Shown here piece after piece: positions 13,072-64,000 of a stretch of 64,000 nucleotides of DNA. Every line of letters starts with the position of its first letter. The first letter of the stretch is position 1. The notes beneath the pieces are model-generated. The model did no database searches and had not been told where the DNA came from. It worked only from the letters and a program-made list of their open reading frames with translations. This stretch comes from Gammaproteobacteria bacterium (GTDB lineage Bacteria; Pseudomonadota; Gammaproteobacteria; UBA4575): the NCBI GenBank assembly GCA_965221955.1, contig CBDCTA010000022.1:373734-437733 (forward strand), given 5' to 3'. The position numbers and the translations under genes are program-made.

Positions 13072-13986
13072 TCATTTTCTGCGTTCTAGCACTTCCTCAA
13101 AGCGTTTTAGCTCATCTAATGCTCTTGTATAACCAAATTCTATAAGCTCTTCGGCACGATCAAACTCAAACCAACTACATATATTGCGTGGTATTTCAAT
13201 GACGATATCTGGTCGATCCGCAGCTAGCTTAAAGCGCGCAATTGAGCTTTGCATGGTATCCATAGACTGAGTTACAAGATTGAAAAGCCCTAAATCCTGC
13301 TTACTTTTATCATTTGCACCTTTAGGTAATAGTCCTTCAATAAATTTCTCAATGCCAAGTTGATATTTATTTTTACCTTGATCTTCCGTGTCTTCGTGTT
13401 GCTCGGTTCCATGTTCTGGTTCAAAAATTTCTGCTGGACCATTTAGTCCTATTGCAACGGTTAATTCAGTATCGTCATTTAAGGTAGGTGCAATAGGGAT
13501 GGGGTTAATGATTCCACCGTCTACTAATAATCTATCTTGATATTGAACCGGTGAAAAAATCATGGGTACTGCAATTGAGGCACGAATTGCTTCAAATAAT
13601 GAACCATTAGTAAGCCAGATTTCTTTTTGCTCAAGAATATCTGTGGCTACTGCAGTGTACCCAATTGGCAAATTTTCTATCATACGATCTTTGATGATCT
13701 CATTAAGTGCCTCAATAATTTTTTCACCTTTAAATATAGATTTCCTGTTAAACGAAATATCGAGTAGACGAATAATATCTCTTCGTTTTAACTCTTTTAC
13801 CCAATCTAAATAAGTATCTAATTCGCCCGCAGCATAAATGCCACCAATTAACGCTCCCATGGAGGATCCAGAGATGTACTGAATTTCGTAATCATTTTCT
13901 TCTAAGCAATGAATTGCACCGATGTGCGCTAAACCACGTGCAGCACCACTTCCAAGTACGAGTGAAATTTTTGTTTTCTTTTTCAA
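13072..13986 (-). CDS. Patatin-like phospholipase (RssA/YchK type)
   Basis: GSGAARGLAHIG, GSSMG and DGG motifs. Lies 14 nt downstream of cls on the same strand. Confidence 0.9.
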   Translation of the reverse strand: MKKKTKISLVLGSGAARGLAHIGAIHCLEENDYEIQYISGSSMGALIGGIYAAGELDTYLDWVKELKRRDIIRLLDISFNRKSIFKGEKIIEALNEIIKDRMIENLPIGYTAVATDILEQKEIWLTNGSLFEAIRASIAVPMIFSPVQYQDRLLVDGGIINPIPIAPTLNDDTELTVAIGLNGPAEIFEPEHGTEQHEDTEDQGKNKYQLGIEKFIEGLLPKGANDKSKQDLGLFNLVTQSMDTMQSSIARFKLAADRPDIVIEIPRNICSWFEFDRAEELIEFGYTRALDELKRFEEVLERRK

Positions 13987-14000
13987 AGTCTAAATAAGTT

Positions 14001-15422
14001 TTATAAGTAAGGTGAAAATAACCATGCAATACCATCACGAACTTTAATCAGTAACGGTCGATTATCTACTTCTTCCAAAGTTACATTTTTACAAGTTAGT
14101 AAAATATTTTGAGCGTAATTACTCAATTTGGTTGCAAATTCTGCATCATAAACTTCTAAACCTACTTCATAATTTAACCTAAGACTACGAGGGTCGATGT
14201 TCGCAGATCCAATAAGGCTGTATAAATTATCGATTATGAATAATTTTGAATGAGAAAATGGTCCTGGTTGATAGAAAACATTCACTCCATTTTCAAGCAA
14301 TTCCCAAAGCATGTGGTGGGTTGCCCAGTTCACATAATTTAAGTTGTTTTTCTCTGGCAAAATAATAGTGACATTTACTCCACGAAATGCTGCAGTCTGT
14401 AATGCTGCAATCAATTCTCGGTTGGGTAAAAAATACGGTGTCATTAAAATAATAGTCTGCTTGGCAGAATTGATTGCGCTTAATAAAATGATTGATAGAT
14501 GATCTAAATTCTCACCAGGCCCATCAGTAATCGTTCGGCAAATTATTGAAGTATTTGAGTTTGGTGCACTTATATTCGTATTTTCTTTAATCTTACCTCC
14601 TACAAATTGCCAATCGGTCTCAAAAACATTTTGTAATTGATCCACTACAGGTCCAGTAACTTTAAAATGAATGTCTTTTAAAGAAGGTTTCGTATTTTCA
14701 TCGTATTGATAATATTCTTGCGAAATATTCATTCCTCCAATAAAGCTAAGGTTGCCATCTATAACTAATAACTTGCGATGGTTACGTAAATTAATACTTA
14801 AATTTAATGGTATTAGCTTCGGCGGCAAAAAGCGTAATACCTGTATGTCATTCTTTAAAAGTGTTCGCCGCACTTTTCGAAATGAGTAAAACTCCCCAAT
14901 ACCATCAATCAATACATATACCTCAACGCCACGATTTTTAGCTGCAACGAGTGCTTCAATAAATTGTTTGCCGATTTTGTCTTTTTTGAAAATATATACA
15001 CATAAATATATAAAATTTTCTGCAGAATTAATTGCACTCAGCATCGCATTATAAGTTTGCTCACCGGAATAAAACTCATCTAGCTGATTGTCTTCAGTCA
15101 AGGGTAGGCGAGTGATATGACTGGATACTTTCTCTAAGCTTTTTAATGGTTTCGGAATTTGATTCTTTAAATCACTATGCGTAATTCTCTCTTGCTTGTG
15201 TATATTGTCTTTAGGTATTGAAATGCTTAGTCGAAGTGCGCGTTTTCGGACACGATTTATTCCAAACATGAAATAAAGCAATGGGCCAAAAAAAGGTAGA
15301 AGAAAACAAACGCCAATCCAACCAAAAGCAGCTCTAGGATCTTTTTTATAAATTAAAGCGTGTGTAGCTGAATAAACAGCTACCACTAATAAAAACACAC
15401 TTATTGCATACTGATAAGGCAT
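14001..15422 (-). CDS. cls: Cardiolipin synthase (phospholipase D family)
   Basis: Two N-terminal TM helices, two HKD motifs (NHRKLLVID, HSKLFIID) and GSANIDPRSLRLNYE. Confidence 0.9.
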   Translation of the reverse strand: MPYQYAISVFLLVVAVYSATHALIYKKDPRAAFGWIGVCFLLPFFGPLLYFMFGINRVRKRALRLSISIPKDNIHKQERITHSDLKNQIPKPLKSLEKVSSHITRLPLTEDNQLDEFYSGEQTYNAMLSAINSAENFIYLCVYIFKKDKIGKQFIEALVAAKNRGVEVYVLIDGIGEFYSFRKVRRTLLKNDIQVLRFLPPKLIPLNLSINLRNHRKLLVIDGNLSFIGGMNISQEYYQYDENTKPSLKDIHFKVTGPVVDQLQNVFETDWQFVGGKIKENTNISAPNSNTSIICRTITDGPGENLDHLSIILLSAINSAKQTIILMTPYFLPNRELIAALQTAAFRGVNVTIILPEKNNLNYVNWATHHMLWELLENGVNVFYQPGPFSHSKLFIIDNLYSLIGSANIDPRSLRLNYEVGLEVYDAEFATKLSNYAQNILLTCKNVTLEEVDNRPLLIKVRDGIAWLFSPYL

Positions 15423-15512: not shown

Positions 15513-15526
15513 TTGATTTATATCAA
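15513..15526. promoter_or_regulatory. FNR box (perfect), bidirectional between cls and a cytochrome c gene
   Basis: TTGATTTATATCAA, with -10-like TATAGT (15488-15493, minus) and TACTCT (15548-15553, plus) at class II spacing. Confidence 0.88.
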
Positions 15527-15581
15527 AAATAATCTGACTGTATCGATTACTCTAAAAGCGAACAAATAAGACGGAGTGAAT

Positions 15582-16040
15582 ATGAAAATTCTAAAAAAGT
15601 TTATGGCGAATAGTTTAACACTTATCGTAGTTTCCATTATTTTAACCGGCCCCACGCATGCCGGAGATTTGATGGAGCTTACTGAGACTGATGATGCCGT
15701 AATCGAGGGTGAGAAAGAGTACCAAGAGAGATGTGCACTCTGCCATGGAGAAAATGGTAAAGGAGATGGCCCATATTCTTTTGCTCTAGTTTTTAAACCT
15801 GCAGATTTGACTAAATTACTTAAGGAGGACGGCACGTTTCCTTTTTTAGAAACATATTTAATTATCGATGGGCGTGATATGAATAAATATCATGGCACAC
15901 GTTTAATGCCGATATGGGGAGATCGATATAGTCAAGAAACTTGGACTCATGTTAGTCCTGATTTTGCTAGCACCTTAATTAGGGGGCGTATATTTGAGCT
16001 GGTGTTATTCCTATATTCAATCCAAGATCCGGCACTATAA
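15582..16040 (+). CDS. Periplasmic monoheme cytochrome c (paralog 1 of 6)
   Basis: Signal peptide, CALCH, PADLTKL, GTFP, IDGR, HG...MPIWG and RGRIFEL. GGAG RBS favours ATG 15582. Confidence 0.88.
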   Translation: MKILKKFMANSLTLIVVSIILTGPTHAGDLMELTETDDAVIEGEKEYQERCALCHGENGKGDGPYSFALVFKPADLTKLLKEDGTFPFLETYLIIDGRDMNKYHGTRLMPIWGDRYSQETWTHVSPDFASTLIRGRIFELVLFLYSIQDPAL

Positions 16041-16296: not shown

Positions 16297-16851
16297 ATGT
16301 TTAACATCGATCAAGACGATATTAGAAGAATTTCTGGGCAACTTGATACCCTGTATACTGCTTTAAAATGCTATGTTTATTACACAGAGGTGAAAAGTAA
16401 ACTCGATATAGAAAAGAACAATGCGCAGTGCTGGGGATTTATTGAGTTTACCTTGATGTATACGATGCTAATAAATTGGAATGAAATATTTGGCATCAAT
16501 GCTAAAGGAAATCACTGGAAAGAACTTACTTTTGAGCAAGATGAATATATAGATAAACTCTATGATTCGGGGGGATATACCTATGCAAGTTGGTCTGAAT
16601 ATCGCCGTAAAATAAATGATCTTTGTAATACGTTTATTTCGTTTCCAGATCCATACCATCATAAAAATCAAGAGTATGATTTAACAGGCATAAAAGTTTC
16701 ACTAGAAGTCACCCATCATTGGCTACATAAGATTGTAGCTGATGCCAGCGATATTCTTAGTAACGAAGAAGCAGAGAAATGGCCGATTGCCAATATCAAT
16801 TATATTGAGGAGCTAAAAAAAGAAATTCAGGCTGTTTTTAATAATGCATAG
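16297..16851 (+). CDS. Hypothetical protein (possible degenerate HEPN-like helical domain)
   Basis: 184-aa ORF. The pattern INWNEIFG...HWK and DLCNTFISFPD sits where an RNxxxH motif would be. Family assignment is inference. Confidence 0.6.
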   Translation: MFNIDQDDIRRISGQLDTLYTALKCYVYYTEVKSKLDIEKNNAQCWGFIEFTLMYTMLINWNEIFGINAKGNHWKELTFEQDEYIDKLYDSGGYTYASWSEYRRKINDLCNTFISFPDPYHHKNQEYDLTGIKVSLEVTHHWLHKIVADASDILSNEEAEKWPIANINYIEELKKEIQAVFNNA

Positions 16852-16874: not shown

Positions 16875-17312
16875 TTATCTTTTATTATTTTTATTATGTA
16901 TAAGCTGTTGCATTTGTAGATAGGTGAAAGACGCTGTCCATGCGATGAGTACTAAACCGGTTAAAGCTTCGGAACCTGCGGTAAATCGAATGTGACCAAC
17001 AGGTACAATGTCTCCATAGCCTAGAGACGTATAATTCACAAAAGAAAAATATACGCAATCTAATATCGTATTGCTAAATTCGCCAATTACTTCACCCGTA
17101 TTATTGAGTGGCAGCAAAAAATAATATAAAAATGAAAACATCCATACTTCTATTACATGGGTAAGGATGACGATAAGTACGCCTACGGGTAATAGCAGCC
17201 TCGAGGGCCATGAACGCTTAAAATGTTTTTCAGCGAGATGAGTCAACACTTCATAATGAAGCGCAACGGCTAACACGATAACTAATATCGTGCTGATAAA
17301 AACGACTGGCAT
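16875..17312 (-). CDS. Small K+ channel-like protein (Ion_trans_2)
   Basis: Pore motif YFSFVNYTSLGYGDIVP flanked by TM helices. Confidence 0.85.
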   Translation of the reverse strand: MPVVFISTILVIVLAVALHYEVLTHLAEKHFKRSWPSRLLLPVGVLIVILTHVIEVWMFSFLYYFLLPLNNTGEVIGEFSNTILDCVYFSFVNYTSLGYGDIVPVGHIRFTAGSEALTGLVLIAWTASFTYLQMQQLIHNKNNKR

Positions 17313-17637: not shown

Positions 17638-18717
17638 TTAGCTTCCCGTGGTGATCATGTTTATTAGCCAAGCTAATAGAATGACTTGAGGGACAGCAAT
17701 TAGCGGTAGAAATAATGCAATTTTCCAAGACTTAGTCGTATCACGTAACACCATAATCTCAGTGTAATCGGTAGATACACCCGTCATTAGAAAAGCGAAG
17801 CTATTCCCTGGTGCATTCGCGCGGGTCAATATATCTGCTGCAATGGGAGTGGAGCCTTCAGAACACACCTCTATCACGGTTGCAGCAATCAGAGTTAAGG
17901 CAAGTCCCATTACTGTCGGGCCAAAATAAGTTTGAAAGGTATCAGCATCCAAAAGTACTCGAACCAATCCTGCTAGTAATACACCAAATAATATCCAACG
18001 TATTACCATGCGTGATTCCATCACGCCATCTTTTAGCATCCCCCAAAAAAAAGATGTGCTAAACGTTGTAGCATTCCATCTAGATTTTGCTTCACGCCAG
18101 AATTGAAAGTTTTTGGGCAAGTCAATTTTATGGATATTATCCGGAAGTACTTTTGCAATGACTAACTTATCAAAAATGAGTCCAGTAATGATTGCAACCA
18201 ACATAGAAGCTGCAATAAATAATAGCGTCCATTTCAGTCCGACTAATGCGATTAAAATCAGCGTCAGCGAAAATGAATTCCATGGGCTCGCAACCAAAAA
18301 TGCCATCACTTGCCCTGCACTGACTCCTCTTTCATATAATTTTGCCCCGACCATTAAAATGCCATGACTGCATAAATCCAGTAACACACCACCTATGGTG
18401 GCGCGCAAGATGCCACGTAAGCCATTACCTGTTCCAAGCAAGGAAACCACAAACTCTCTTGGAACCTTAGTTAATATCGCGACCATAACCATCCCAATGG
18501 CGATCCCCCACCAAATAGTATTAATTAATTCAAAAGTAGAATGGCTTAATGAAGCCAGCGGTGAGATCGAAGAAATTTGGCTAGAAAAAAGCCAATGTAA
18601 ACAATAAAGCACTATTGAGAGGATTAAAGTGCTCCAAAGCAAATAATCAGGCCGACCTTTTTTTACATCGCAGCATGTGTTCTGCTTCGTAGTCTCTACA
18701 TGACAATGCTCGCTCAT
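17638..18717 (-). CDS. DUF318/ArsP-family permease
   Basis: Internal repeat motifs LDLCSHG and IEVCSEGSTPI, AFLVASP, and an N-terminal HCH...CC metal-binding-like tail. Confidence 0.8.
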   Translation of the reverse strand: MSEHCHVETTKQNTCCDVKKGRPDYLLWSTLILSIVLYCLHWLFSSQISSISPLASLSHSTFELINTIWWGIAIGMVMVAILTKVPREFVVSLLGTGNGLRGILRATIGGVLLDLCSHGILMVGAKLYERGVSAGQVMAFLVASPWNSFSLTLILIALVGLKWTLLFIAASMLVAIITGLIFDKLVIAKVLPDNIHKIDLPKNFQFWREAKSRWNATTFSTSFFWGMLKDGVMESRMVIRWILFGVLLAGLVRVLLDADTFQTYFGPTVMGLALTLIAATVIEVCSEGSTPIAADILTRANAPGNSFAFLMTGVSTDYTEIMVLRDTTKSWKIALFLPLIAVPQVILLAWLINMITTGS

Positions 18718-18920
18718 GAATACCCTTTAATGATCAGCTAAAAATGGTTGGTAAGTATTCTACTATTAACTTGCCAGCTAATCAGAGGAGTATCGAATAT
18801 GCTCACAAATACTATAGAGATTTCTCCAAGCATGATTGATTTAAATTAGGTTATTCCAAGAGTGTGTATTTGCTAGTGATCTATAAAATTAAATGAGAAT
18901 AACGTAAGTATATTATGTGT

Positions 18921-19313
18921 TTATGGATTATTGTTGTTTAATATCGACTGCATCCGCTCAATAAAATCTCTTTCCACAATTGGTTTTTCAATAAAATCTG
19001 CAGCGCCTGCTTGTATGGCTTTTACCGCTGTGTTCACACTGTTGTCACCATCAGCTAGGACCACAACAGGTGTAGACAAGCCATGTTCACGCATTTGTTT
19101 GATAAACGTTATACCATCAGTATTATTCAGCTTAATTTCGGTAATTAAACAGGCTGGAGTTTCAGAAATCGGTGCGGTTAAAAATGCTTTAGCATTATCA
19201 AAAGTTTTCACTTCGGCAGGAATTTTTTTCAGCAATTGAGTAATTTGATCGCGAGTATCCTCATCGTCTATGATGAGATGGATAGGTTTCCTTTTGTTTA
19301 ATTTCCAAATCAT
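18921..19313 (-). CDS. Single-domain receiver protein, FixT-like (phospho-Asp replaced by Glu)
   Basis: IIDDED, CLITEIKL (E where FixJ has CILADVRM) and DFIEKP. Directly downstream of fixJ with its own FNR box. Confidence 0.8.
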   Translation of the reverse strand: MIWKLNKRKPIHLIIDDEDTRDQITQLLKKIPAEVKTFDNAKAFLTAPISETPACLITEIKLNNTDGITFIKQMREHGLSTPVVVLADGDNSVNTAVKAIQAGAADFIEKPIVERDFIERMQSILNNNNP

Positions 19314-19402: not shown

Positions 19403-19416
19403 ATGATCTCAATCAA
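19403..19416. promoter_or_regulatory. FNR box (1 mismatch) upstream of the FixT-like gene
   Basis: ATGATCTCAATCAA, plus a weaker TGA-N6-TCA site at 19377-19390. Confidence 0.7.
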
Positions 19417-19494: not shown

Positions 19495-20100
19495 CTAAGA
19501 ATTGAGCATAATTTTAACCAGCTCAGCTACAGATTTTGCACCCAGTTTCTCCATAGCGTGCGAGCGGTGGATTTCGACTGTGCGATCACTAATATCCAGT
19601 TCCCGTGCAATCACTTTATTAGCTTTACCTTCTAAAACTAAATCAACTACTTCCTTCTCACGTGCAGTAAGCGTATTTACTCGATTTTGGTTAGCCAGTA
19701 GGTTTTCACGCAATTTTCGATTCGCAAGGTCTTTTTCTAGTGCTTGAGTGACGCAATCGAGTAGTTCTTGATCTCGAAATGGCTTTTGTAAAAATTCAAA
19801 TGCACCATCCTTCATCGCTTGAACTGCCATAGTAATATCGCCATGGCCTGTCATTATGATTAACGGTTGAGGTGCTTTTAATTCGATTAATTTGTGTTGC
19901 AATTCAATGCCACTCATACCAGGCATGCGCACATCTGCAAGAATGCAGCCAGATACGTTTTCATTAAATTCATTCAAAAAATTAACTGCCGAGTCATAAG
20001 CTTGAGTTTGTAATCCAATAGATTCAATTAATTCTACCAAGCTGTCGCGTACATCTTCATCGTCATCAATAATGTATACAATTTTTTGTTCTTCACTCAT
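19495..20100 (-). CDS. fixJ: FixJ-family response regulator (REC plus LuxR HTH)
   Basis: IIDDDEDVRDSL, CILADVRMPGMSG, MTGHGDITMAV and LTAREKEV...ANKVIARELDISDRTVEIHRSHAMEKL. Confidence 0.9.
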   Translation of the reverse strand: MSEEQKIVYIIDDDEDVRDSLVELIESIGLQTQAYDSAVNFLNEFNENVSGCILADVRMPGMSGIELQHKLIELKAPQPLIIMTGHGDITMAVQAMKDGAFEFLQKPFRDQELLDCVTQALEKDLANRKLRENLLANQNRVNTLTAREKEVVDLVLEGKANKVIARELDISDRTVEIHRSHAMEKLGAKSVAELVKIMLNS

Positions 20101-21623
20101 GCTTCTTCCAATACAGTAGGTATAGTGAAATGAAAAGTAGTTCCTTTATCTGTGTTTTGGGTAAACCACATATGCCCTCCATGCAGTTGGATGATTGATT
20201 GACAAATTGCTAAACCCATGCCCATCCCGGAAGATTTTGTCGTATAAAATGGGTTAAATAAATTTTGCGCGGTTTCTTCATCTATACCTTTGCCAAAATC
20301 TCTTACCGAAACTTGGATTCTATTTTCATTTTTTAATAAAGTAGATGAAACAATGATTTTTTTATATTTCTGGTCTTCTACTGCGGTTGCTTCCATTCCA
20401 TTACGAATTAAATTTAATATCACCTGTTGAATTTGTATTGCATCCGCTGCAACATTTGGCAAAGTATCTGCAAGCTCAAGTTTAATTTTAAACTCCATGG
20501 CTTGGGTATCTGCTTGCGCTAAATTCGCTGCCTCTTCTATTGAAGTATTAATATTTATATAGGCATGTGTTTTGGTTTCATGCTTCACCATAGCTCGTAA
20601 GCGAGCAATAACATCACTTGCCCGCAAAGAAGCTTTAGAGATTTTCTTAAGTAATTCATGCAATTTCTCATAGTCTATATTTTCAGCTTTTATCCTGCGT
20701 TGCGCTGCTTTCGCGTAGGAATCAATTGCGGTTAATGGCTGATTGATTTCATGTGCAATTCCAGCTGCCATTTCTCCCATCATGCTTACACGATCCATAT
20801 GTGCCAGTTGCTCTTGTTGAGTTTTGATTTGCTCTTCTGTCTCTACATCTTTAGTGATGTCTAAAATATGAGTGATTAATAAGGCAGGTTCACCTTTTTC
20901 ATCATGTGCAAGTGCGACATTTTCATTTACTAGCGCAACATTTAATAATACATTTATAACTTTGTTGTCTTTGCGTAGATAACGTTTTTCAAGACTGTAT
21001 CCAGATAGGTCACCGCTTAATAATTTTCGTAAGTAATCTTTGCTGACATCAATATCATCTGGGTGAGTAATATCGATGTAGGTTAGTTTTAAAAGTTCAG
21101 GTTTAGAGTAGCCTAAAATATCGCATAAAGTTGGATTTACATTTACATACTTACCATCTAGATTCATTACCGCTACACCAGTCGGCGCATTTTCAAAAAC
21201 CAGCCTGAACTCTTCTTCATATAAGCGAGATGCTTCTTGAGCCTGTTTGACATCGGTAAGATCCTGAATGAATCCGGTAAAATAATGCTGATTATTATCT
21301 GTGAATTCGGCGACGGATAACCATATCGGCAGGCTACTACCGCCCTTTCGTAGGGCAGTAAGTTCCCGCCCCTTTCCAATAATCTTGGCATCACCAGTGG
21401 TAAGATAACTATGAATATAACCATCATGTTGTTCTTGGTAGGGAGACGGCATAAGCATGCTGATATTTTTTCCAATGACTTCTTCTGCCGTATAAGCAAA
21501 CATTCTTTCAGCGGCAGGATTAAAGGACTGGATGATTCCAGCATTGTCGATGGTAATAATGCCCTCAAAAGATGATTCAATAATCGCGTGTAAGCGCGAA
21601 GCAGTATTCAAAGGGACAGTCAT
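20097..21623 (-). CDS. fixL: FixL-type O2-sensing histidine kinase (heme-PAS, PAS, HisKA, HATPase; no TM)
   Basis: Heme-PAS signature LMPSPYQEQHDGYIHSYLTTGDAKIIGKGRE (proximal His, distal Arg), H-box GIAHEINQPL, and N/G boxes. 4-nt overlap with fixJ. Confidence 0.9.
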   Translation of the reverse strand: MTVPLNTASRLHAIIESSFEGIITIDNAGIIQSFNPAAERMFAYTAEEVIGKNISMLMPSPYQEQHDGYIHSYLTTGDAKIIGKGRELTALRKGGSSLPIWLSVAEFTDNNQHYFTGFIQDLTDVKQAQEASRLYEEEFRLVFENAPTGVAVMNLDGKYVNVNPTLCDILGYSKPELLKLTYIDITHPDDIDVSKDYLRKLLSGDLSGYSLEKRYLRKDNKVINVLLNVALVNENVALAHDEKGEPALLITHILDITKDVETEEQIKTQQEQLAHMDRVSMMGEMAAGIAHEINQPLTAIDSYAKAAQRRIKAENIDYEKLHELLKKISKASLRASDVIARLRAMVKHETKTHAYININTSIEEAANLAQADTQAMEFKIKLELADTLPNVAADAIQIQQVILNLIRNGMEATAVEDQKYKKIIVSSTLLKNENRIQVSVRDFGKGIDEETAQNLFNPFYTTKSSGMGMGLAICQSIIQLHGGHMWFTQNTDKGTTFHFTIPTVLEEA

Positions 21624-22014
21624 AACATGGAATTAGTTTGATTCATGGGGTCTTATTATTTTTATTCTTTAACTACCCTATTAGCTGTGCGGCTAAATGC
21701 CATTACTTAATCAGCAGCCTTTCTGGTAACAGAAAAAACCAGCATTTTCGCTATAAGCAGTGCCATTTTAGCAGCGCAATCTTCTTTACAAATATGCAAT
21801 TATTTTTTCATATATTTCATGCCCTTAGCTGAACCTTGGCATCTATCCGTACATAGCTTGATCAGCCGAACTAGGTATTTTCCGAAGGTGTCATACGCGT
21901 ACGTACGAATTTTTTCTAACTAAGGTTCCAGGTCCAATAATACGTAAGGATGAAGATCTGATTTAGCACGGACAAAACAAAGATAACGAATATTTTTAAA
22001 CCGGAGTAAAGGCT

Positions 22015-23387: not shown

Positions 23388-23389
23388 TC

Positions 23390-54242: not shown

Positions 54243-54267
54243 GCTATCTGATTTAGAAAATGTCTAC

Positions 54268-55836: not shown

Positions 55837-55850
55837 TTGATCTAGCACAA
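55837..55850. promoter_or_regulatory. FNR box (2 mismatches) upstream of cytochrome 6
   Basis: TTGATCTAGCACAA. Confidence 0.55.
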
Positions 55851-56761: not shown

Positions 56762-56769
56762 AATAATGA

Positions 56770-58770
56770 TTAGAGCCCGAACGGATAGGTGTCGGGCAAC
56801 GCTTCTAGCTCTTTTGTTTGGAAAGGATTTACGGCTTGAGTTTTATCGAACCAAATATATTCATCAAATTGCTTGGGTAAGACAGCATGAAAATAATGGC
56901 TCGCGAGCTCTGTTTCAGGTCGATAAATTACTCCAATTGCACGTTCCAGACGTGATTTCAGTAGTTCATTATGCACGTCTTGTGATTTTGGATTTTTTAA
57001 TGCTAACAAAAAGCCAGGTATATTGGTTTGATGGAATATTCTTTCATAACTTTTTTCAAGTGATGGCCTGACTTGTTTCACTTCCATAGGACCATCCCAA
57101 TCCGATGCCGCTGCAACGGTGCCAGTGTCTGTGCCAAACCCTATGTTATAACTTTCACAATTCAGTTCTTGTCGACACAAATAGCCAATATTGTATTCGC
57201 CACGCGTGAACATCTCTGTTGCGGATGCATCGCCAATATGAGAATTATGTGCCCAAACTATGCCTTTACTATTTTCTCCATAAAATTTTAGTAATGTTTG
57301 CAATGTTTCGAACATATGGCTATCACGTAAATTCCACGATGCACGAGAGCCATAATACATAATGCGATAATACCGCTCTGCATTTGCAACCAGTCTTGCG
57401 TTTTGTACGGTATCTAAAAATCGTTCGCCATCATGTTGAGTGTAATCACTGTGTTTGTGCAATATATCCGTCAACATTTGCACCACTTCTTCTTCGCATG
57501 ATTTATATGAACCTGAAATCGCTGCACGCCCATAGGTTGCAGGGTCTTTCTGCCAAGGGTTTAAACACCCATAACGCTCACGTGCAACTGCAGCACTCGC
57601 GGGATCAATCTCATCAAGGTAATCTAAAATAGATCGAATAGAATTAAAAAGGCTGTAAAGGTCAAGGCCGTGAAAAGCTACGCGTTGTTTTAGCTTTTTA
57701 TGCGTATTGTATTCACGCAACCAATCGACAAATTGTCTAACCGCTGTATTACGCCACATCCATACTGGAAATCGTGCGAAAGCAGTCCATTCTGAAGGTG
57801 GATATTCAAAATGCCTTACATAATGATCGATACGCGATGCATCCGGCCAATCTCCTTCAATGGCAATAAAATTAAATCCTTTCTTAGTAATGAGCTCGCG
57901 AGAGATGCGTTCACGCATACGATAAAACTCGTCTGTACCGTGCGAAGCTTCGCCAAGCAACACGACTCTTGCATCGCCAATTCGCTGCAGTAAAGGCTCA
58001 AGATTAGCTGTTTCGATAGAATCGAGTCTCTCCGCTACATTTTGTATTTCGTTTACTAATCTGCTTTTTTTATCTTCATGTTTAACTTTAGCCTTTTGCG
58101 TAAGAGCTAATTCTTCATTTTCTGCATCCCATCCTTCTTGACCAATTAGTGGTACAAAACGAACATCTGCAATATCTTCATATTCAAAATCACTTTCTCC
58201 AGTACGTGTGACTCGCACTAATTCTTGTGCACGTGGGTCGGTGCCAATTGGGATTACTAATCGACCTCCAATTTTTAATTGTTTCTTAAGTGATTCCGGA
58301 ACTTCGGGTCCGCCGGCTGCCACTACAATCGCATCATAAGGCGAATGTAGTGGCCATCCGCGTGTTCCATCTTCATGCAATACATGTACGTTTTCATAAC
58401 CAAGCTCTTGTAATGTAGTGTTTGCTTTTGCAGCAATTTGGCCAATTCTTTCTATGGTATAAACTTCGCTTGCAATTTCAGCAAGCACTGCAGCTGCATA
58501 TCCTGAGCCTGCACCAATTTCTAATACTTTTTCGTTACCTTTTAGTAATAATATTTCTGTCATCAGAGCGACAATATAAGGTTGAGAAATTGTCTGTCCT
58601 TCTCCTATAGGCAATGGTGTGTCTTCATACGCGAATTCTCGTAGTTCATCAGGCACAAATGCTTCGCGCGAAACGGTTCGCATTGCATTTAATACTAATT
58701 CAGAATGTATACCTCGCGCGGCAATATGATTTTCAACCATATTTTCACGAAGTTTGACAAAATCTGTCAT
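56770..58770 (-). CDS. pcm: Protein-L-isoaspartate O-methyltransferase fused to an erythromycin-esterase-like domain
   Basis: N-domain AYEDTPLPIGEGQTISQPY, LEIGAGSGY and VRFVPL. C-domain LLGEASHGT, EGDWPD, WNLRD, VWAHNSH and ERAIGVIY. Confidence 0.9.
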   Translation of the reverse strand: MTDFVKLRENMVENHIAARGIHSELVLNAMRTVSREAFVPDELREFAYEDTPLPIGEGQTISQPYIVALMTEILLLKGNEKVLEIGAGSGYAAAVLAEIASEVYTIERIGQIAAKANTTLQELGYENVHVLHEDGTRGWPLHSPYDAIVVAAGGPEVPESLKKQLKIGGRLVIPIGTDPRAQELVRVTRTGESDFEYEDIADVRFVPLIGQEGWDAENEELALTQKAKVKHEDKKSRLVNEIQNVAERLDSIETANLEPLLQRIGDARVVLLGEASHGTDEFYRMRERISRELITKKGFNFIAIEGDWPDASRIDHYVRHFEYPPSEWTAFARFPVWMWRNTAVRQFVDWLREYNTHKKLKQRVAFHGLDLYSLFNSIRSILDYLDEIDPASAAVARERYGCLNPWQKDPATYGRAAISGSYKSCEEEVVQMLTDILHKHSDYTQHDGERFLDTVQNARLVANAERYYRIMYYGSRASWNLRDSHMFETLQTLLKFYGENSKGIVWAHNSHIGDASATEMFTRGEYNIGYLCRQELNCESYNIGFGTDTGTVAAASDWDGPMEVKQVRPSLEKSYERIFHQTNIPGFLLALKNPKSQDVHNELLKSRLERAIGVIYRPETELASHYFHAVLPKQFDEYIWFDKTQAVNPFQTKELEALPDTYPFGL

Positions 58771-58829
58771 CAACACTTCCCTAGCATTATCGGAAAGGCA
58801 AAAGTTAAGTAATTAGATAACTTTTTGTG

Positions 58830-58843
58830 TTGATCTTTATCAA
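58830..58843. promoter_or_regulatory. FNR box (perfect) upstream of the pcm fusion
   Basis: TTGATCTTTATCAA. Confidence 0.88.
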
Positions 58844-58880: not shown

Positions 58881-59192
58881 TTATTTTTCGGATTCGAACC
58901 TATATAAACGTTCTCTTAATCCCCCGATTTCCTCTAATAAATCCAGTGCTAAGGCAATGCCTGCTAAGTTTAAGCCTAAATCTCGCTCTAATCGCATTGC
59001 AGTATGTGCTTTTTGTAAGTTTGATCCGGTGAATCGCCATTGATGTTGCTCTTTCCCTATGGGGTCTAGTACACCTTCCTGAACCAATTCAATAATCCAC
59101 TCAGCATGACAGTTACAAACACGACACATATCGCTCATGGAGAGCTCTAGCTGTTCATCTAACACAGCCCCAGTAATAACGTTGTCTTGCAT
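58881..59192 (-). CDS. cbpM: Chaperone modulator CbpM
   Basis: ELVQEGVLDP...WRF...RLERDLGLNLAGIALALDLLEEI, directly after cbpA. Confidence 0.9.
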   Translation of the reverse strand: MQDNVITGAVLDEQLELSMSDMCRVCNCHAEWIIELVQEGVLDPIGKEQHQWRFTGSNLQKAHTAMRLERDLGLNLAGIALALDLLEEIGGLRERLYRFESEK

Positions 59193-59197
59193 ATTTT

Positions 59198-60148
59198 TTA
59201 CACTCCCAATTCAGCGCGTGGGTTAAACGCGAGCTCTTGTTCCATCTTGCGATATAACTGTTTTGCTTTTTCAGTATCTGCAGTAGGTAATTTAATTTGC
59301 AAAGTCACATAGATGTCTCCTGCAGGAGATCCGGGAATACCCTTACCTTTTAATCGTAATTTTCGGTTTGCTGCAGTATTTGGAGGAATTTTGAGATCCA
59401 GCTTGCCCGTAGGAGTTGGAATTTTTACATTGACACCAAGTGCCGCTTCCCAAGGTGCTACAGGTACATCCAAGTACACATCACGTCCTTCAACGTGATA
59501 GAGCATATGAGGCTTAAATTCGATTTCCAAATAAAGATCACCAGCTTCACCTCCTGAAACGCTTGAAGCACCTTGTCCCGCTAAACGAATTTTTTGGCCT
59601 TGTTTTACACCTTTTGGAATTTTTACAGATAGTTTGTGCTCTTTATTAACCACTCTACCCGTATTATCTAGAAAAGGAGTACGCAAATTAATCTCACGTG
59701 TTGCACCTGAGTATGAATCTTCGAGATCAATTAATACTTTGGCATGATGATCTTCGCCTCTTTGGCTAAACCCTGTATGTGCACGCCTACCTGCTGATGG
59801 GCCAAAGCCGTGACCAAATAACGTTTCAAAGAAATCACTAAAATCTGCACCACCAGCTTTTGCATACCCATCACCACTGAATTCAAATCCCGCATCCCAA
59901 TTTGGGGGCGGACGAAAATCTTGGCCTGCTTGCCAATTGGCACCCAACTGGTCATATGCAGCTCTTTTTTCTGGATCTTTGAGTACTTCGTAAGCTTCGC
60001 CTACTTCTTTAAACTTTTGTTCCGCATCCTTTTCTTTGCTGACATCAGGGTGGTATTTTCTAGCCAACTTCCGATAGGCGCGCTTGATTTCGTCCTGTTT
60101 AGCATCACGCTCCACGCCCATAATCTTGTAATAGTCTTTGTAATCCAT
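59198..60148 (-). CDS. cbpA: DnaJ-class co-chaperone CbpA (no zinc finger)
   Basis: MDYKDYYKIMGV...RKYHPD J-domain, G/F region DFSDFFETLFG and C-terminal PWEAALG. Confidence 0.92.
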   Translation of the reverse strand: MDYKDYYKIMGVERDAKQDEIKRAYRKLARKYHPDVSKEKDAEQKFKEVGEAYEVLKDPEKRAAYDQLGANWQAGQDFRPPPNWDAGFEFSGDGYAKAGGADFSDFFETLFGHGFGPSAGRRAHTGFSQRGEDHHAKVLIDLEDSYSGATREINLRTPFLDNTGRVVNKEHKLSVKIPKGVKQGQKIRLAGQGASSVSGGEAGDLYLEIEFKPHMLYHVEGRDVYLDVPVAPWEAALGVNVKIPTPTGKLDLKIPPNTAANRKLRLKGKGIPGSPAGDIYVTLQIKLPTADTEKAKQLYRKMEQELAFNPRAELGV

Positions 60149-60201
60149 AGCAAACAATATTTTATTTAGGTGAATATTGAAAGCATTCTACGCTAGGTGT
60201 A

Positions 60202-60215
60202 TTGACACATATCAA
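60202..60215. promoter_or_regulatory. FNR box (1 mismatch), bidirectional
   Basis: TTGACACATATCAA between divergent cbpA and the DUF2934-like gene. Confidence 0.8.
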
Positions 60216-60508: not shown

Positions 60509-61090
60509 ATGGAGAAGCGTGTCTTAATTATCCAGGGCCACCCTGATGGCTCAAAGCAACATTATTGCCACGCAATTTCTAATGCATACAAAAATGGCGC
60601 AAGAAATAATGGCTATGAGGTTAGGTTCATTAATATCGCCCAACTTAATTATCCTATCTTGCGCACTCAAGAAGAATTTGAAAGTGATGAACTCGTAAAC
60701 GACATTAAAAATTCCCAACAAGATATCCGCTGGGCTAATCATATCGTTATTATTTATCCATTATGGCTGGGTGGTATGCCAGCCTTGCTAAAAGGATTTT
60801 TTGAACAAACATTTCGCTATGGATTTGCTATTGGTCATGAAACCAAAAAAATGCCTAAAAAACTACTTAAAGGTAAATCCGCCCGAGTATTCGTCACCAT
60901 GGGTATGCCAGCATTTATATATAGATGGTTTTTTGGTGCTCATAGTCTAAAGAGTTTGCAAAAAAGTATTTTAGGTTTGGCAGGAATTAAACCTGTTAAA
61001 TATAATTTGATTGGGTTAGTAGACGCTAGTAATAATAGGCGTATGAAGTGGCTTAAGAAAATACAAGTTCTTGGTCAACAAGGAGTGTAA
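60509..61090 (+). CDS. Flavodoxin-like NAD(P)H:quinone oxidoreductase (KefF/MdaB family)
   Basis: IIQGHP, YPLWLGGMPALLKGFFE and LLKGKSARVFVTMG. Confidence 0.9.
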   Translation: MEKRVLIIQGHPDGSKQHYCHAISNAYKNGARNNGYEVRFINIAQLNYPILRTQEEFESDELVNDIKNSQQDIRWANHIVIIYPLWLGGMPALLKGFFEQTFRYGFAIGHETKKMPKKLLKGKSARVFVTMGMPAFIYRWFFGAHSLKSLQKSILGLAGIKPVKYNLIGLVDASNNRRMKWLKKIQVLGQQGV

Positions 61091-61132
61091 ACTTAACCTT
61101 TGTGTACGCAAAAATACTAATTCGTACAAGAC

Positions 61133-61879
61133 ATGCAAACTAATAACAATAAAGCCCTGCCTAGAAATGCTAAGGATCAGGTCACTCTCAGCACTAAAGC
61201 CTTAAGTAAAATCTATCAAACAGGAGATGTGAAAGTCCATGCACTACGCGATGTAGACCTTTCATTATATGAATCTGAATTAGTAGTTTTATTAGGGGCA
61301 TCCGGAAGTGGTAAATCTACATTAGTAAATATCATCGGCGGCTTGGACACGCCAACGTCTGGACAAGTATTTTTTTACCAAGATGACCTAACTGCTTATA
61401 ACGATCATCAACTTACTTTGTTTCGACGAGAAAACGTTGGCTTTGTATTCCAATTTTACAACTTAATACCCAGTTTAACTGCTCTTGAAAATGTTGCATT
61501 GGTTACAGAGATTTCTAAAGACCCTATGCGCCCAGATGACGCACTTGCGATAGTAGGTTTAACAGAGCGGGTTAATCATTTCCCAGCACAATTATCAGGC
61601 GGTGAGCAGCAGCGTGTCGCTATTGCACGTGCGATTGCCAAACGCCCATCTATTTTATTATGCGATGAGCCCACAGGTGCATTAGATAGTAAAACGGGGA
61701 TTTTAGTTTTAGAAGCCATTGAACGTGTTAACCAAGAGCTTGGTACAACTACCATCCTAATCACACATAATGCTGTCATTTCTGATATGGCGGATCGTGT
61801 TGTCACACTAGCCGATGGACAAATAAAGTCTATCAGTGAGAATTCTCAACGCTGCACACCTAAAGACCTCGTTTGGTAA
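61133..61879 (+). CDS. ABC transporter ATP-binding protein (LolD/MacB type)
   Basis: [43 protein letters not shown] and ITH. Confidence 0.93.
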
Positions 61880-64000
61880 TGCATGCACTTGACCATAAAC
61901 TGATACGAGATTTATGGCGATTACGCGGGCAGGTGCTCGCCATAGGTTTAGTCATTGCTTCTGGTGTAGGCATACTGGTGATGTCTTTAAGCACCCTTGA
62001 ATCATTAAGGGATACTTCAAATGCATATTATGAGCGTTATCGCTTTGCTGATGTTTTTTCAGGGTTAGAGCGTGCGCCAATAGGTTTAAAAAATCGTATT
62101 GCGGATATTCCAGGCGTTCAAACAGTACAAACACGAATCGTAAAATTTGCGGTATTAAATATAGAAGGTTTTGAAGAGCCAGTAATTGGTCAATTAGTTT
62201 CAATCCCAGAGCGTGGTGAACCGTTGTTAAACCAACTTGCTTTACGAAATGGTCGATTCGTATCACCTGGCCGGGTTGATGAAGTAGTCATCAGTGAACC
62301 TTTTGCAGATGCACATGAATTAAAAAGTAGGCGATCATTTTGAAGCCATTATGAATGGTAATAAACGTAAGCTTGATGTAGTGGGTATCGCACTTGCGCC
62401 AGAGTTTGTTTATGCCATAGGGCCAGGCGCATTAATGCCAGATGAGAAACGTTTTGGAATTATATGGATGGGCCGCAAAGCGTTAGCCTCAGCTTATGAT
62501 CTTGATGGTGCATTTAATGACATATCATTGTCGTTGTTAGTCAATACCGGATCCAAAATTTGTCATAAAACACTTAGATCAGCTTACCAAAGATTATGGC
62601 AGTATTGGCGCAATCGCGCGTAAAGACCAAATTTCTAATTGGTTCTTAATGAATGAAATCGAACAAATGCGCACCATGAGCATGCTGTTACCGACTATCT
62701 TTTTAACTGTGGCAGCTTTTCTAACACAAATGGTGTTATCGAGATTAATTGCTACCGAACGCAGTGAAATTGGTTTGCTTAAAGCTTTTGGCTACACGCG
62801 TTTACAAGTAGCTTGGCATTATGCGCGGATGGTGATTGCCATTTCAGGCATTGGTATTTTATTAGGTTGGGTGCTTGGCACTTGGCTAGGTAGATACCAA
62901 ACTGGGCTTTATGCAGAACTTTACCGTTTTTCCGTTTCTTTATTTTAAGCCTAGCTTAACTACGTTTGGTATAAGTGCATTAGTCAGTGTATTGGCAGCA
63001 TTGGTAGGTTCTACTCGAGCCGTTTACAGTGCGGCAACCTTACCACCAGCGGAAGCCATGCTACCTCCTTCGCCTCCAGTGTTATAAGCGTCGCAAAAAT
63101 TTCATCACGCGTTTATTAGCTTGGCTCGACCAACCCACACGCATCATATTTAGACAACTTGCACGTTGGCCGATACGTTCAATGCTTACCAGCATAGGTG
63201 TTGCTTTTGCGGTGGCCGTTTTAGTCATGTCGCTTTCTTGGTTTGACTCAATCAGGCAAATTATTGATGTGTATTTTTTTGATGCACAACGTCAAGACAT
63301 CACTATTGGTCTCAGCAATGAGCAAGGTGATGAAATTGTTTATGAATTGGGACACCTTCCAGGTGTGCTAAGCGTAGAACCTTCTCGAATTGTAAGCACA
63401 GAATTCTATGCCAGTAACCGTAAGCACCGAGGTACCATACAAGGGGTTTCATCCTCCGCAATCCTTAATCCTGTTTATGACGTAGAACGGGGCATTGTCC
63501 CGATTTATTCTAATGGACTTTCACTAAATAGCATGTTGGCTGAAAAATTACAGGTTGCAGTGGGTGATTTAGTGCTAGTCAAAATTCTGCAAGAACGTAG
63601 GCCCGAAGTATTAATACCTGTCGTTGATATATTTGAATCCTATATTGGCATGCCTGCATACATGAATATTGATGCGCTTAACCGACTCATGAAAGTAGGG
63701 AAACAGGTTGAATTTTTAAATATGCTAGTGGATGAAAAATACGAATCTGAACTATTTGCTGAACTAAAAGAAATTCCTGATGTTGCCGCTGTAAGTTTGC
63801 GCCAAGCTGCCGTGGATACTTTCAATGACACGATGGCAGAAAATTTACTTATTTTCGTTACTTTATTTTCTAGTTTTGGATGCGCATTAGCGTTTGGGCT
63901 GGTTTATAACAGTACGCGCATAACGTTGTCAGAACGGGGTCGCGAGTTGGCCACTTTACGTGTGCTTGGATTTACCAGAGCTGAAATTTCGTACATTTTA
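61879..64000 (+). CDS. FtsX/MacB-type ABC permease, partial, with four +1 frameshifts
   Basis: One continuous protein (KLIRDLWRLRGQ...ERSEIGLLKAFGY...LPPAEAM...ERGRELATLRVLGF) is recovered by removing one base at each of about 62324, 62549, 62929 and 63082. Confidence 0.85.

Follow-up and report, generated by a model that had tools for sequence, protein, structure and literature searches.

The closest described system to the locus reported here is the lxa locus of Burkholderia cenocepacia J2315, which, in the account of Sass et al. (2013, PMC3721108), spans 50,722 bp and 50 genes, carries 17 intergenic TGA-N6-TCA motifs, and includes an Anr-related regulator that adjoins a two-component system. 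The cargo given there comprises six universal stress proteins (USPs), an alpha-crystallin, cytochrome c551/552, a metal-dependent RNase, an FtsH-type protease, a cation ATPase, and ABC and outer-membrane transport; the locus is reported to be induced 2- to over 240-fold at low oxygen, and its deletion to lower anoxic survival, not growth (PMC3721108). In a 2025 review, FixL-FixJ-FixK is proposed as the lxa switch and aligned with the Anr and DosR regulons (PMC12071387). Here, we describe a comparable locus in a 64,000-nt stretch of gammaproteobacterial DNA (hereafter the window; G000:C22:373734-437733, its right end coinciding with the contig end) from assembly G000 (2.69 Mb, 29 contigs). From about 13 kb onward, the window is an accessory island that combines a dense cluster of palindromic FNR boxes with genes for FixL, FixJ, and FNR, and that probably works as one FNR-driven low-oxygen regulon.

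Because its features match the lxa description one by one at the family level, we class the island as an lxa-type locus, by analogy a close counterpart in a distant, uncultured host; the parallel with lxa drawn in a first-pass annotation of the window holds for gene families and motif. Both loci are ~50 kb with ~50 genes (16 boxes with ≤1 mismatch plus weaker ones here, 17 motifs in lxa), both have an internal Anr/FNR-like regulator beside a two-component system, and both are variably present among relatives. Shared families are USPs, alpha-crystallin/HSP20, cytochrome c, metal-dependent RNase, FtsH-type Zn protease, cation P-type ATPase, and ABC and outer-membrane transport, a likeness judged by product names in the lxa gene table (BCAM0275a-BCAM0323). 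Relative to that table, a PCMT-esterase fusion, HPF, CbpA/CbpM-like proteins, Cls/patatin, DsrE2/TusA, a rhomboid protease, and six cytochrome c paralogs are particular to the island, whereas a nitroreductase, ribonucleotide reductase, phosphofructokinase, and sulfate transporter occur in lxa only. The island also differs from lxa in having two sizes and two chromosomal sites, and in its host, an uncultured low-GC gammaproteobacterium that is probably marine and sulfur-oxidiser-like. A protein from the left flank shares 85-86% identity with two gammaproteobacterial/Pseudomonadota metagenome-assembled genomes and ≤68% with sulfur-oxidising lineages, the genome encodes SoxY with a perfect box upstream, and sequencing runs containing the stretch are labelled marine metagenome; nothing in these data marks the host as a listed pathogen. 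The GC content of the island is 37.0% vs 38.6% for the genome, which places it in the lowest 9% of windows and is only mildly deviant.

The likeness to the DosR regulon of Mycobacterium tuberculosis concerns cargo only (alpha-crystallin, USPs, a P-type ATPase, and an erythromycin-esterase-domain protein); a DosR/DosS/DosT-type system was not seen among the island proteins, where the sensors are FixL and FNR, and the regulators are FixJ, FNR, two MerR_2 proteins, and an ArsR protein. The esterase had been likened to Rv2030c, an orthologue of which is described as a phosphoribosyltransferase (PRT) domain followed by an esterase domain (PMC7387457); the erythromycin-esterase domain is indeed common to both, but the N-terminal domain differs, being PCMT here. 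With the Anr regulon of Pseudomonas aeruginosa, the island shares the consensus TTGATNNNNATCAA, as quoted in PMC12071387, and USPs among the targets. The sites of the Anr and FNR regulons are dispersed along the chromosome and belong mostly to respiration and fermentation genes, whereas here the best sites lie in one accessory island without respiratory enzymes. FixK is not known to have the Fe-S cluster of FNR, and the activator here, a cysteine-bearing FNR, differs from it in likely being an oxygen sensor itself. In other respects the island resembles the FixLJ-FixK-FixT cascade of Caulobacter and rhizobia, as outlined in 10.1101/2024.02.05.579008 and PMC4999443, with a heme-PAS kinase, FixJ, an adjoining CRP/FNR-family activator, and a small inhibitor gene under the activator's box.

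The window was scanned for the box pattern TTGATNNNNATCAA (TTGAT-N4-ATCAA), using 100 dinucleotide-preserving shuffles as the control. We found nine perfect boxes, a number that none of the 100 shuffles attained (mean 0.41, maximum 4). Eight of the nine are intergenic and lie within the island, at 15513, 24927, 27214, 31547, 37536, 49028, 51423, and 58830, exactly where the first-pass annotation had placed them. The ninth, at 33968, had been overlooked and sits within a FadL-like ORF; its orthologous position carries 2-4 half-site changes in three of three related genomes, where the surrounding coding DNA is 73-84% identical. Given that the half-sites are not kept in relatives, we treat this match as probably due to chance and do not count it as a site. 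The seven reported one-mismatch boxes (19403, 32084, 42061, 43128, 45385, 53429, and 60202) are all there, with 45385 overlapped by a better-placed second match at 45379, as are four weaker ones with two mismatches each (27882, 43047, 52145, and 55837). Altogether, 22 matches with ≤1 mismatch occur in the window vs 7.55 ± 2.42 expected. The first 15 kb, described as free of boxes, are so for perfect boxes, with one-mismatch matches at 2237, 3221, and 3694, inside long ORFs.

Across G000, there are 41 exact boxes, nine of them within C22:389246-432563. With a crude ORF mask (2,672 ORFs, 87.7% coding), 18 perfect boxes are intergenic, eight of which fall in the 7,280 of 332,047 intergenic nucleotides (2.2%) that belong to the island (binomial p = 1.9e-9), as do eight of the 57 intergenic one-mismatch boxes. 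When 51-kb windows were ranked by intergenic boxes with ≤1 mismatch, the island came first with 16, followed by a stretch on contig C26 with eight and a third with four. Because the island tops this genome-wide count, its box density exceeds that of other intergenic DNA in the genome, and the box cluster is real and stronger than first claimed. We also searched 14 congeners (G001, G010, and G014 being complete) and one genome of another genus (G015). The island-less G001 and G010 have 21 and 26 exact boxes, those listed for G010 being scattered without a comparable cluster, and the island-bearing G014 has 38; overall, the genomes searched contain 21-38 perfect boxes each vs 2-7 for a reversed-pattern control.

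Outside the island, ten intergenic perfect boxes of G000 (among them C4:66081, C11:7907, C26:78264, and C29:261326) stand above genes for SoxY, a methyltransferase, an MscS-type channel, a glutamate-synthase-domain protein, a Na+/H+ exchanger, a formate-tetrahydrofolate ligase fragment, and several unknowns, with no classical respiratory FNR target among them. The runner-up on contig C26 (C26:72028-92000) is a second, smaller cluster of eight intergenic boxes with ≤1 mismatch, including a single perfect box; a second perfect match lies at the edge of an ORF. Its genes include those for an adenylate-cyclase-domain protein, an M23 peptidase, a ferritin/Dps-like protein, and a split formate-tetrahydrofolate ligase, together with a large serine recombinase, a phage terminase, and a ParB-methylase, and it may be a further mobile FNR-controlled block.

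The boxes are conserved well beyond the DNA around them. Island DNA in G002, G004, G005, and G013 is ~70-79% identical to that in G000, and among the orthologous upstream regions located for 22 target genes, the box stands at nearly equal distance in almost all, as seen across congeners for hsp20 (67.5, 68.5, and 67.5 nt), fnt (59.5, 59.5, 59.5, and 56.5 nt), and ftsH (81.5, 70.5, 68.5, and 72.5 nt). In 16 promoter alignments (two G004 rows removed as paralog hits), the columns identical to G000 amount to 312/330 (94.5%) for half-sites, 105/132 (79.5%) for spacers, and 3570/6798 (52.5%) for other upstream and flank positions, with no repeat unit seen to reach past the box. A second peak of conservation, at +36, +37, and +41 from the box start, corresponds to a TAnnnT hexamer at gap 22. 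Such a hexamer at gap 21-23 toward the gene is found for 16 of 24 box-gene pairs in G000, compared to an island intergenic background of 9.8% (p = 2.5e-11), and the box centres lie 43.5-158.5 nt upstream of start codons. Class II FNR activators bind near -41.5, the textbook geometry of E. coli class II FNR promoters, and if the TAnnnT hexamer is read as a -10 element, its spacing would place the box centre at -41.5, consistent with this class.

Two boxes, at 51423 and 53429, first seemed to lack a gene; conserved small genes, missed in the first-pass annotation, start 72.5 and 65.5 nt downstream. One encodes a 32-aa small hydrophobic peptide (51502-51600, forward strand), which shares 78-84% identity with its counterparts in G002 and G013 and has a two-mismatch box 69.5-73.5 nt upstream in each. 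The other encodes a 54-aa FmdB-family zinc-ribbon protein (53501-53665, forward strand; TIGR02605, 67 bits vs cut-off 31.3), which is 85% identical in G002/G013 and 70% identical to a second copy in G013, with the box 64.5-66.5 nt upstream. In our own tally, ~24 box-headed transcription units cover about 43 of the 54 genes between 13072 and 60157. Enrichment, phylogenetic footprinting, and promoter geometry together give good support to the reading of a clustered FNR-box regulon.

The four regulators that had been read in the block (FixL, FixJ, a FixT-like receiver, and FNR) are all present by Pfam/NCBIfam and residue checks. The island fnr gene (22015-22761, forward strand) encodes a 248-aa protein with 240.9 bits against NCBIfam Fnr NF008365 (cut-off 228), cysteines C24, C27, C33, and C126 (CxxCx5C plus a central Cys), and the recognition helix ETVSR; we take these cysteines to be the equivalents of C20/C23/C29/C122 in E. 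coli FNR. Given the four cluster cysteines, the ETVSR helix, and the score above cut-off, we identify this protein as FNR proper, not a cysteine-less FixK, and predict an O2-labile [4Fe-4S] cluster. Upstream of it, on the reverse strand, fixL (20097-21623) and fixJ (19495-20100) form an operon. FixL has two PAS domains followed by HisKA and HATPase_c (Pfam), and its PAS1 (residues 10-130) matches the FixL heme-domain structures 2cmn/1dp6 at E = 1e-30; in the alignment, the His of 'RHDSYI' is kept in 'QHDGYI' and the Arg of 'GIGR' in 'GKGR', which we take to be the proximal heme ligand and the GxGR Arg. FixJ consists of a receiver and a LuxR/GerE helix-turn-helix.

The FixT-like protein (18921-19313, reverse strand; Response_reg 1.3e-19) is a receiver-only pseudo-receiver. 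Aligned to FixJ, its 'CLITE' stands opposite 'CILAD', giving a Glu at the phospho-acceptor Asp in a degenerate acidic pocket, and this Glu is conserved in G002, G013, and G014. Caulobacter FixT is said, in the title of Stein et al. 2020, to bind an Fe-S cluster; the pseudo-receiver has a single Cys, without the Fe-S-binding cysteine set of Caulobacter-type FixT, and so cannot bind a cluster in that way. A one-mismatch box (19403-19416) lies 96.5 nt upstream of its gene and is conserved at 96.5-106.5 nt in G000, G002, and G013; the pseudo-receiver may work like FixT. Between fixL and fnr, we found no FNR box with ≤2 mismatches upstream of either fixLJ or fnr. Given this lack of a box upstream of fixLJ, the Caulobacter-type positive feedback outlined in 10.1101/2024.02.05.579008 is not evident here. 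The same intergenic region has a block conserved in G014 and more weakly and partly in G013; its part at 21870-21888 (forward strand), with fnr starting ~136 nt downstream, is similar to the S. meliloti fixK FixJ site and to the SELEX consensus quoted in PMC4999443, and is a candidate FixJ site, as a lead only.

Two further FNR-type genes occur in G000, at C29:138783-139520 and C29:471730-472407, with the same cysteine pattern and an ET(V/I)SR helix. The former, a core paralog ~4 kb from ccoN, is present in 12 of the 14 congeners, including the island-less G001 and G010. The three FNRs differ directly behind their second cysteine, where the island copy has His, the core paralog Ser, and the third Leu; this position is described as altering O2 reactivity in E. 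coli FNR and three P. putida FNRs (PMC4505428, where Cys-23 of E. coli FNR is also named). A fourth family member, the CRP-like G000:C3:67235-67792, is without N-terminal cysteines and has 'REMAGR' in place of 'ET(V/I)SR', and a search of G000 at E = 1e-10 returned no further CRP/FNR-family members. Orthologues of the island-type FNR (77-87% identity) turned up in no genome without fixL or island DNA. The description of the programme as self-contained thus holds insofar as FNR, FixL, and FixJ are encoded inside the island, and not insofar as two more FNR paralogs could serve its boxes. Upstream of the core fnr paralog, we noted two symmetric CTGAT-N4-ATCAG palindromes (C29:139637 and 139686), which could be autoregulation sites.

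From these components, a two-tier circuit can be proposed. As O2 falls, deoxy-FixL would phosphorylate FixJ, which would then switch on the island fnr via the FixJ-box-like block at 21870-21888. The island FNR, expected to keep its [4Fe-4S] cluster at low O2 only, would dimerise, bind the boxes near -41.5, and recruit RNA polymerase. The pseudo-receiver, itself an FNR target and a non-phosphorylatable look-alike of FixJ, would damp FixL as a FixT-type negative feedback. The FixJ-to-fnr step and the pseudo-receiver feedback are inferred.

Several alternatives bear on which factor reads the boxes, if any. It is conceivable, though we think it doubtful, that the boxes are served mainly by the core FNR paralog, the island being a dense outpost of a global FNR regulon in which its own FNR is redundant or only adjusts the O2 threshold. 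In favour of this, the cysteines and the ETVSR helix are also found in the core paralog, which occurs where the island does not, perfect boxes exceed the reversed-pattern control in all genomes searched, and the paralogs differ at the position after the second cysteine (His/Ser/Leu), which in the work on other FNRs cited above affects O2 reactivity. Yet the confinement of the island-type FNR to genomes with island DNA or a neighbouring fixL is a co-inheritance that argues for a dedicated role, and the best boxes of the genome concentrate in the island and not at ccoN (C29:143598-145079), which has a two-mismatch box only. A different CRP/FNR-family factor, either the CRP-like protein on C3 or a Dnr/NnrR-type NO sensor, is very improbable as the binder, for although a fourth family member does exist in the genome, it has neither the N-terminal cysteines nor an FNR-like helix, and the family search at E = 1e-10 yielded no other candidate. 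CRP-type factors, moreover, prefer TGTGA-N6-TCACA. Least credible of all is that the palindromes are no regulator sites and arose by chance in AT-rich intergenic DNA or through the spread of a REP/MITE-like repeat: the low GC content and the chance-like match at 33968 are in its favour, but the shuffles never reached the observed count, ten half-site positions are conserved while spacer and flanks vary, the distances to -10 elements and start codons are fixed, and the alignments contain no repeat unit beyond the box.

What the regulon is for can also be read differently. One possible, if tentative, view is that the island is an active micro-oxic/anoxic metabolism module of a sulfur oxidiser, supplying alternative electron carriers and moving sulfur and ions where oxic and anoxic zones meet, and not a dormancy kit. 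Six small cytochrome c genes, the DsrE2-TusA pair, the formate/nitrite channel, thioredoxin, a flavodoxin-like reductase, and the perfect box upstream of the genomic SoxY gene fit such a module. Against it, Pfam scans found no terminal oxidase, reductase, or dehydrogenase among the window ORFs, and the largest coherent group of cargo is maintenance (HSP20, three USPs, HPF, FtsH, DnaJ/CbpM-like proteins, PCMT, and RNase), the same mix as in lxa. The first-pass annotation was correct that ccoN/hemN-type respiratory targets are missing from the window, with ccoN located on contig C29 and no HemN found above cut-off. By analogy, the cargo suggests survival and maintenance during oxygen shortage.

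A single FNR-driven low-oxygen regulon remains, for us, the probable reading of the island, with the following points weighing against it. The -41.5 position is a prediction from the distance to the putative -10 hexamer, genes were called as ORFs, and operons were set from strand and gap alone. Eleven island genes have no convincing box, in the units of fixLJ, fnr with two cytochromes, the 184-aa gene, the K+-channel gene, ArsR, DUF211/VIT1, and thioredoxin, the last of which may be co-transcribed with the upstream cytochrome gene. FixL reaches 335 bits against NF041777, a rhizobial model with an equivalog cut-off of 850, and FixJ reaches 229.7 bits with its best match NF006900, just below the equivalog cut-off of 255; given these scores, we call both FixL/FixJ-like by architecture. 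Since there are two similar FNR paralogs, one in nearly all congeners, the island's own FNR need not be the binding factor, and the suggested FixJ-to-fnr link is based on motif resemblance in three genomes only. Among 80 loci with homologues of the island's 531-aa AAA_33 protein (≤52% identity; from Methylococcales, Marinobacter, Pseudomonas, and others), an upstream box with ≤1 mismatch occurs in 5 of the 77 with sufficient upstream DNA vs 2 in shuffled controls, and because the homologues in other taxa thus show no upstream box enrichment, the box wiring is lineage-specific. Finally, the label of a hypoxic dormancy programme is an inference from the analogy with lxa and DosR.

The ~50-kb block reported at 13072-64000 does contain the regulon cluster, while its borders differ: it starts near 11.9-13.1 kb and runs past 64000 onto contig C29. 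The left flank, from window position 1 to ~11.9 kb, is syntenic in G001, G010, G011, G013, and G014. In G013 and G002, the counterpart of G000:C29:1-2302, a segment with another exact box at C29:1574, comes 5.4 kb after the DNA that matches the window end, and in G014, which has no island at this site, the left-flank synteny stops 10 kb from a homologue of C29:2452-3889. From these border matches, the island would extend from ~12-13 kb through the window end to ~C29:2.4 kb, a length of ~55-60 kb.

The island exists in long, short, and absent forms. A longer version in G013 (loci L113/L114, G013:C4:8570-36584) has ~20 kb that are absent from G000, with five further exact boxes, and ends at a tRNA-Arg; within this extra stretch we noted the second FmdB zinc-ribbon gene copy, with its own perfect box. 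The short version, in G014, occupies 20.7 kb (C1:333,639-354,378) and keeps 22 island genes with their order unchanged: patatin/cls come first, fixLJ-fnr and USP/HSP20 follow, and fnt, GNAT, and the 390-aa gene close the series. It has five exact boxes. It is located ~490 nt from a tRNA-Asn within DNA syntenic to contig C18 of G000, where the corresponding site (C18:35-42.5 kb) has no box and no island homologue. The PCMT-esterase fusion, a marker of the long version, was found in four of the 14 congeners (G002, G004, G005, and G013), an island FNR orthologue in G002, G006, G011, G013, G014, part of G004, and the other-genus G015, and a FixL orthologue in G004, G006, G011, G013, G014, and G015; the complete genomes G001 and G010 have none of the three. 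The island is therefore accessory, given its variable presence, its long, short, and absent forms, and its two chromosomal contexts. Beyond the first-pass annotation, the new observations are the continuation onto C29, these forms and two sites, the two small box-driven genes, and the two additional FNR paralogs.

Pfam scans of the 58 ORFs of ≥80 aa from 13072 to the window end and of two left-flank ORFs (ORF 11516-11812 unscanned) detected no integrase or transposase, and tRNA and Rfam scans of the window found nothing. We hold it possible, with considerable reserve, that the island is a portable and modular hypoxia plug-in, in which a two-tier O2 gate (heme-FixL/FixJ controlling an O2-gated FNR, with the pseudo-receiver as brake) travels with all its high-affinity promoters and is gained, lost, shortened, or extended between sites such as the tRNA-Asn locus. 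If so, related species would change their capacity for anoxia survival by moving one piece of DNA, from a 21-kb core to over 55 kb, and the ~7 conserved proteins that have no informative family would be previously unrecognised components of anoxic persistence in bacteria. A search for plasmid carriage via the AAA_33 protein gave no evidence for it: an Amphritea 'plasmid' locus has housekeeping-type genes and no island, and a Cupriavidus megaplasmid record was likewise uninformative. The AAA_33-homologue loci were rejected as island relatives, being not syntenic and having only 10 perfect boxes in 1.28 Mb. On the Cupriavidus metallidurans CH34 megaplasmid (L208), a replicon of 64% GC, we noted a perfect box at 19893, ~100 nt upstream of the AAA_33 homologue, although the gene is without one in most other taxa.

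Two of the AAA_33-homologue loci (L056 and L019), from other metagenome-assembled genomes, are exceptions in having small FixLJ/FNR/USP or HSP20/FtsH/HPF/USP clusters with boxes, which suggests that the lxa-type design is widespread among proteobacteria. The island shows that this design, with a survival regulon and its own sensors in one block, is not confined to Burkholderia. The genus offers a natural experiment, given that genomes with no island, a 21-kb core, or versions of over 55 kb can be compared with the oxygen regimes of their habitats. While the FNR/FixLJ mechanism itself is expected and would not surprise specialists, the promoter architecture gives regulatory context to the 184-, 80-, 390-, 376-, and 298-aa proteins, the 32-aa peptide, the FmdB zinc ribbon, DUF4389, DUF3775, DUF4405, and DUF211, as well as to the PCMT-esterase fusion, which is reminiscent of a DosR-regulon protein; all are testable candidates for anoxic persistence.

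The cargo begins with a reverse-strand operon of a cardiolipin-synthase-like PLD gene (14001-15422; Pfam PLDc_2 2.7e-49) and a patatin-like phospholipase gene (13072-13986; Patatin 3.5e-30). The perfect box at 15513-15526, also perfect at the orthologous site in G002 and G013, lies between divergent promoters, 97.5 nt upstream of this operon, with TAGTAT at gap 21, and 56.5 nt upstream of a small cytochrome c gene on the forward strand (15576-16040; Cytochrome_CBB3/Cytochrom_C matches). A 184-aa protein without a family follows (16297-16851, forward strand), then, on the reverse strand, a K+-channel-like protein (16875-17312; Ion_trans_2 7e-13) and an ArsP_1-type permease (17638-18717; Pfam ArsP_1 2.1e-29), the latter preceded by a weak two-mismatch box (18836-18849) with TAGTAT at gap 21. 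On the far side of the pseudo-receiver, fixLJ, and fnr genes described above, two small cytochrome c genes (22917-23387 and 23384-23848) follow fnr. The next perfect box (24927-24940; perfect in G002 and G013) again serves divergent promoters, standing 84.5 nt upstream of a MerR_2-type regulator (24583-24849) and a USP (24128-24580) on the reverse strand (Pfam), with TATATT at gap 22, and 79.5 nt upstream of an MgtC/DUF4010 membrane protein and a CHAD-domain protein (25013-27203, forward strand; Pfam). The hsp20 promoter holds the perfect box at 27214-27227 (perfect in G002 and G013; TAGAAT at gap 21) ahead of HSP20/alpha-crystallin (27288-27728, forward strand; Pfam HSP20 6.1e-26), and the weak two-mismatch box at 27882-27895 (similar in G002; TATAGT at gap 21) lies upstream of an operon for two 279-aa USP proteins and an amino-acid permease (27994-30974, forward strand; Pfam Usp, AA_permease_2).

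Between this permease and the 80-aa gene we noted a degenerate box with two mismatches (31010-31023), which by coordinate mapping appears to correspond to a perfect box of G013 (L103:7086). The 80-aa protein (31241-31483, reverse strand) has no family; it is 81-84% identical in G002, G004, and G013, with a box upstream in each, and in G000 the perfect box at 31547-31560 lies 70.5 nt upstream. Past an ArsR-family regulator (31606-31932, reverse strand; Pfam HTH_5 5.4e-14), a one-mismatch box (32084-32097) stands 78.5 nt upstream of dsrE2, at equal distance in G002 and G013, and heads the genes for a DsrE2-like protein, a FadL-like outer-membrane protein, TusA, and an SCP2-domain protein (32169-34970, forward strand; Pfam). 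A formate/nitrite-transporter family channel, a CDF cation efflux protein, and a class-II glutamine amidotransferase follow on the reverse strand (34988-37483; Pfam), with the perfect box at 37536-37549, identical in G002, G004, and G013, 59.5 nt upstream. The P-type ATPase (39190-41928) and the 531-aa AAA_33 protein (37577-39172) are also on the reverse strand (Pfam, NCBIfam), and a one-mismatch box (42061-42074) lies between the ATPase and GNAT genes. The GNAT acetyltransferase and DUF4389 protein (42131-42974, forward strand) are followed by a one-mismatch box at 43128-43141, with a related box in G002, and the 390-aa protein (43207-44379, forward strand; no Pfam or NCBIfam match).

Two small cytochrome c genes (44457-45307, reverse strand) have the one-mismatch box at 45379-45392, which overlaps the match at 45385, with TATAAT at gap 21 toward them. 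A rhomboid protease, a LOG/SLOG-type protein, a beta-CASP metallo-RNase, and a DUF4405 protein (45416-48888, reverse strand) share divergent promoters with an FtsH-family protease (TIGR01241, 781.9 bits, above cut-off) and a DUF3775 protein (49116-51426, forward strand; Pfam), the perfect box at 49028-49041 (perfect in G002, G005, and G013) standing 146.5 nt upstream of the former group. The perfect box at 51423-51436 has TATAGT at gap 21 on its forward side, toward the 32-aa ORF. The ribosome hibernation factor (S30AE/HPF family; 51670-52059, reverse strand; Pfam Ribosomal_S30AE 2.8e-16) is separated from the 376-aa gene (52195-53325, forward strand; no Pfam match, faint esterase matches only) by a weak two-mismatch box (52145-52158) with TATAGT at gap 21 toward hpf. 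After the one-mismatch box at 53429-53442 and the FmdB gene come the DUF211 and VIT1-like proteins (53667-54531, reverse strand), without a convincing box, and then a small cytochrome c (55331-55768) and thioredoxin (54854-55183) on the same strand, with a weak two-mismatch box upstream of the cytochrome (55837-55850; equal distance in G002 and G013; TAGTCT at gap 22). The PCMT + erythromycin-esterase fusion (668 aa; Erythro_esteras 3.2e-132, PCMT 1.7e-62) and the 298-aa protein occupy 55865-58776 on the reverse strand, with the perfect box at 58830-58843, kept in G002, G013, and G005. A DnaJ-type co-chaperone (CbpA-like) and its MerR_2 partner (CbpM-like; 58881-60157, reverse strand) follow, with a one-mismatch box (60202-60215) 51.5 nt upstream of the DnaJ-like gene.

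Cargo families were assigned by Pfam and NCBIfam profile scans of the window ORFs, and those named previously (HspX/HSP20, USPs, P-type ATPase, esterase domain, and hibernation factor) are present. Membrane and ion functions comprise Cls/PLD, patatin, the K+ channel, the ArsP_1 permease, MgtC/DUF4010, the CDF transporter, the VIT1-like protein, and the P-type ATPase, which is closest to type IIA models, below their cut-offs. Protein holding and repair would fall to HSP20, FtsH, the DnaJ/CbpA-like protein with its MerR_2 partner, the PCMT-esterase fusion, thioredoxin, and the rhomboid protease; translation and RNA to the S30AE/HPF hibernation factor and the beta-CASP metallo-RNase; stress to the three USP genes; and electron and sulfur transfer to the six small cytochromes c, DsrE2, TusA, and the FadL-like outer-membrane protein. 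Transport and metabolism are represented by the amino-acid permease, the formate/nitrite channel, and the class-II amidotransferase, GNAT, LOG-like, CHAD, and SCP2 proteins, and additional regulation by ArsR and two MerR_2 proteins. Poorly characterised are the 531-aa AAA_33 protein, DUF4389, DUF4405, DUF3775, and DUF211, and five ORFs (184, 80, 390, 376, and 298 aa) have no family by Pfam/NCBIfam; ~7 island proteins in all are without an informative one. Of ten proteins searched against NCBIfam, the FmdB zinc ribbon gave the sole confident name. As leads only, the 390-aa protein is possibly DUF8173/bactofilin-like (Atlas nearest clusters, score 0.97), and the 298-aa protein may belong to an unnamed Atlas family.

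The right end of the window (60509-64000, forward strand), with genes for a flavodoxin-like reductase and for ABC/FtsX transport, showed no box; its DNA is still variable, being present in G011 and G013 and absent from G001, G010, and G014. At 61873-62948, the FtsX-type permease after the ABC ATPase is split into ORFs of 156, 90, and 99 aa, with an FtsX match in the last only, which could reflect either a disrupted gene or a misassembly. Within the conserved left flank, a PEP-CTERM-anchored protein is encoded at 10548-11375, and the 98-aa ORF at the island's left edge (11516-11812) has DNA look-alikes elsewhere in G013 and G014.

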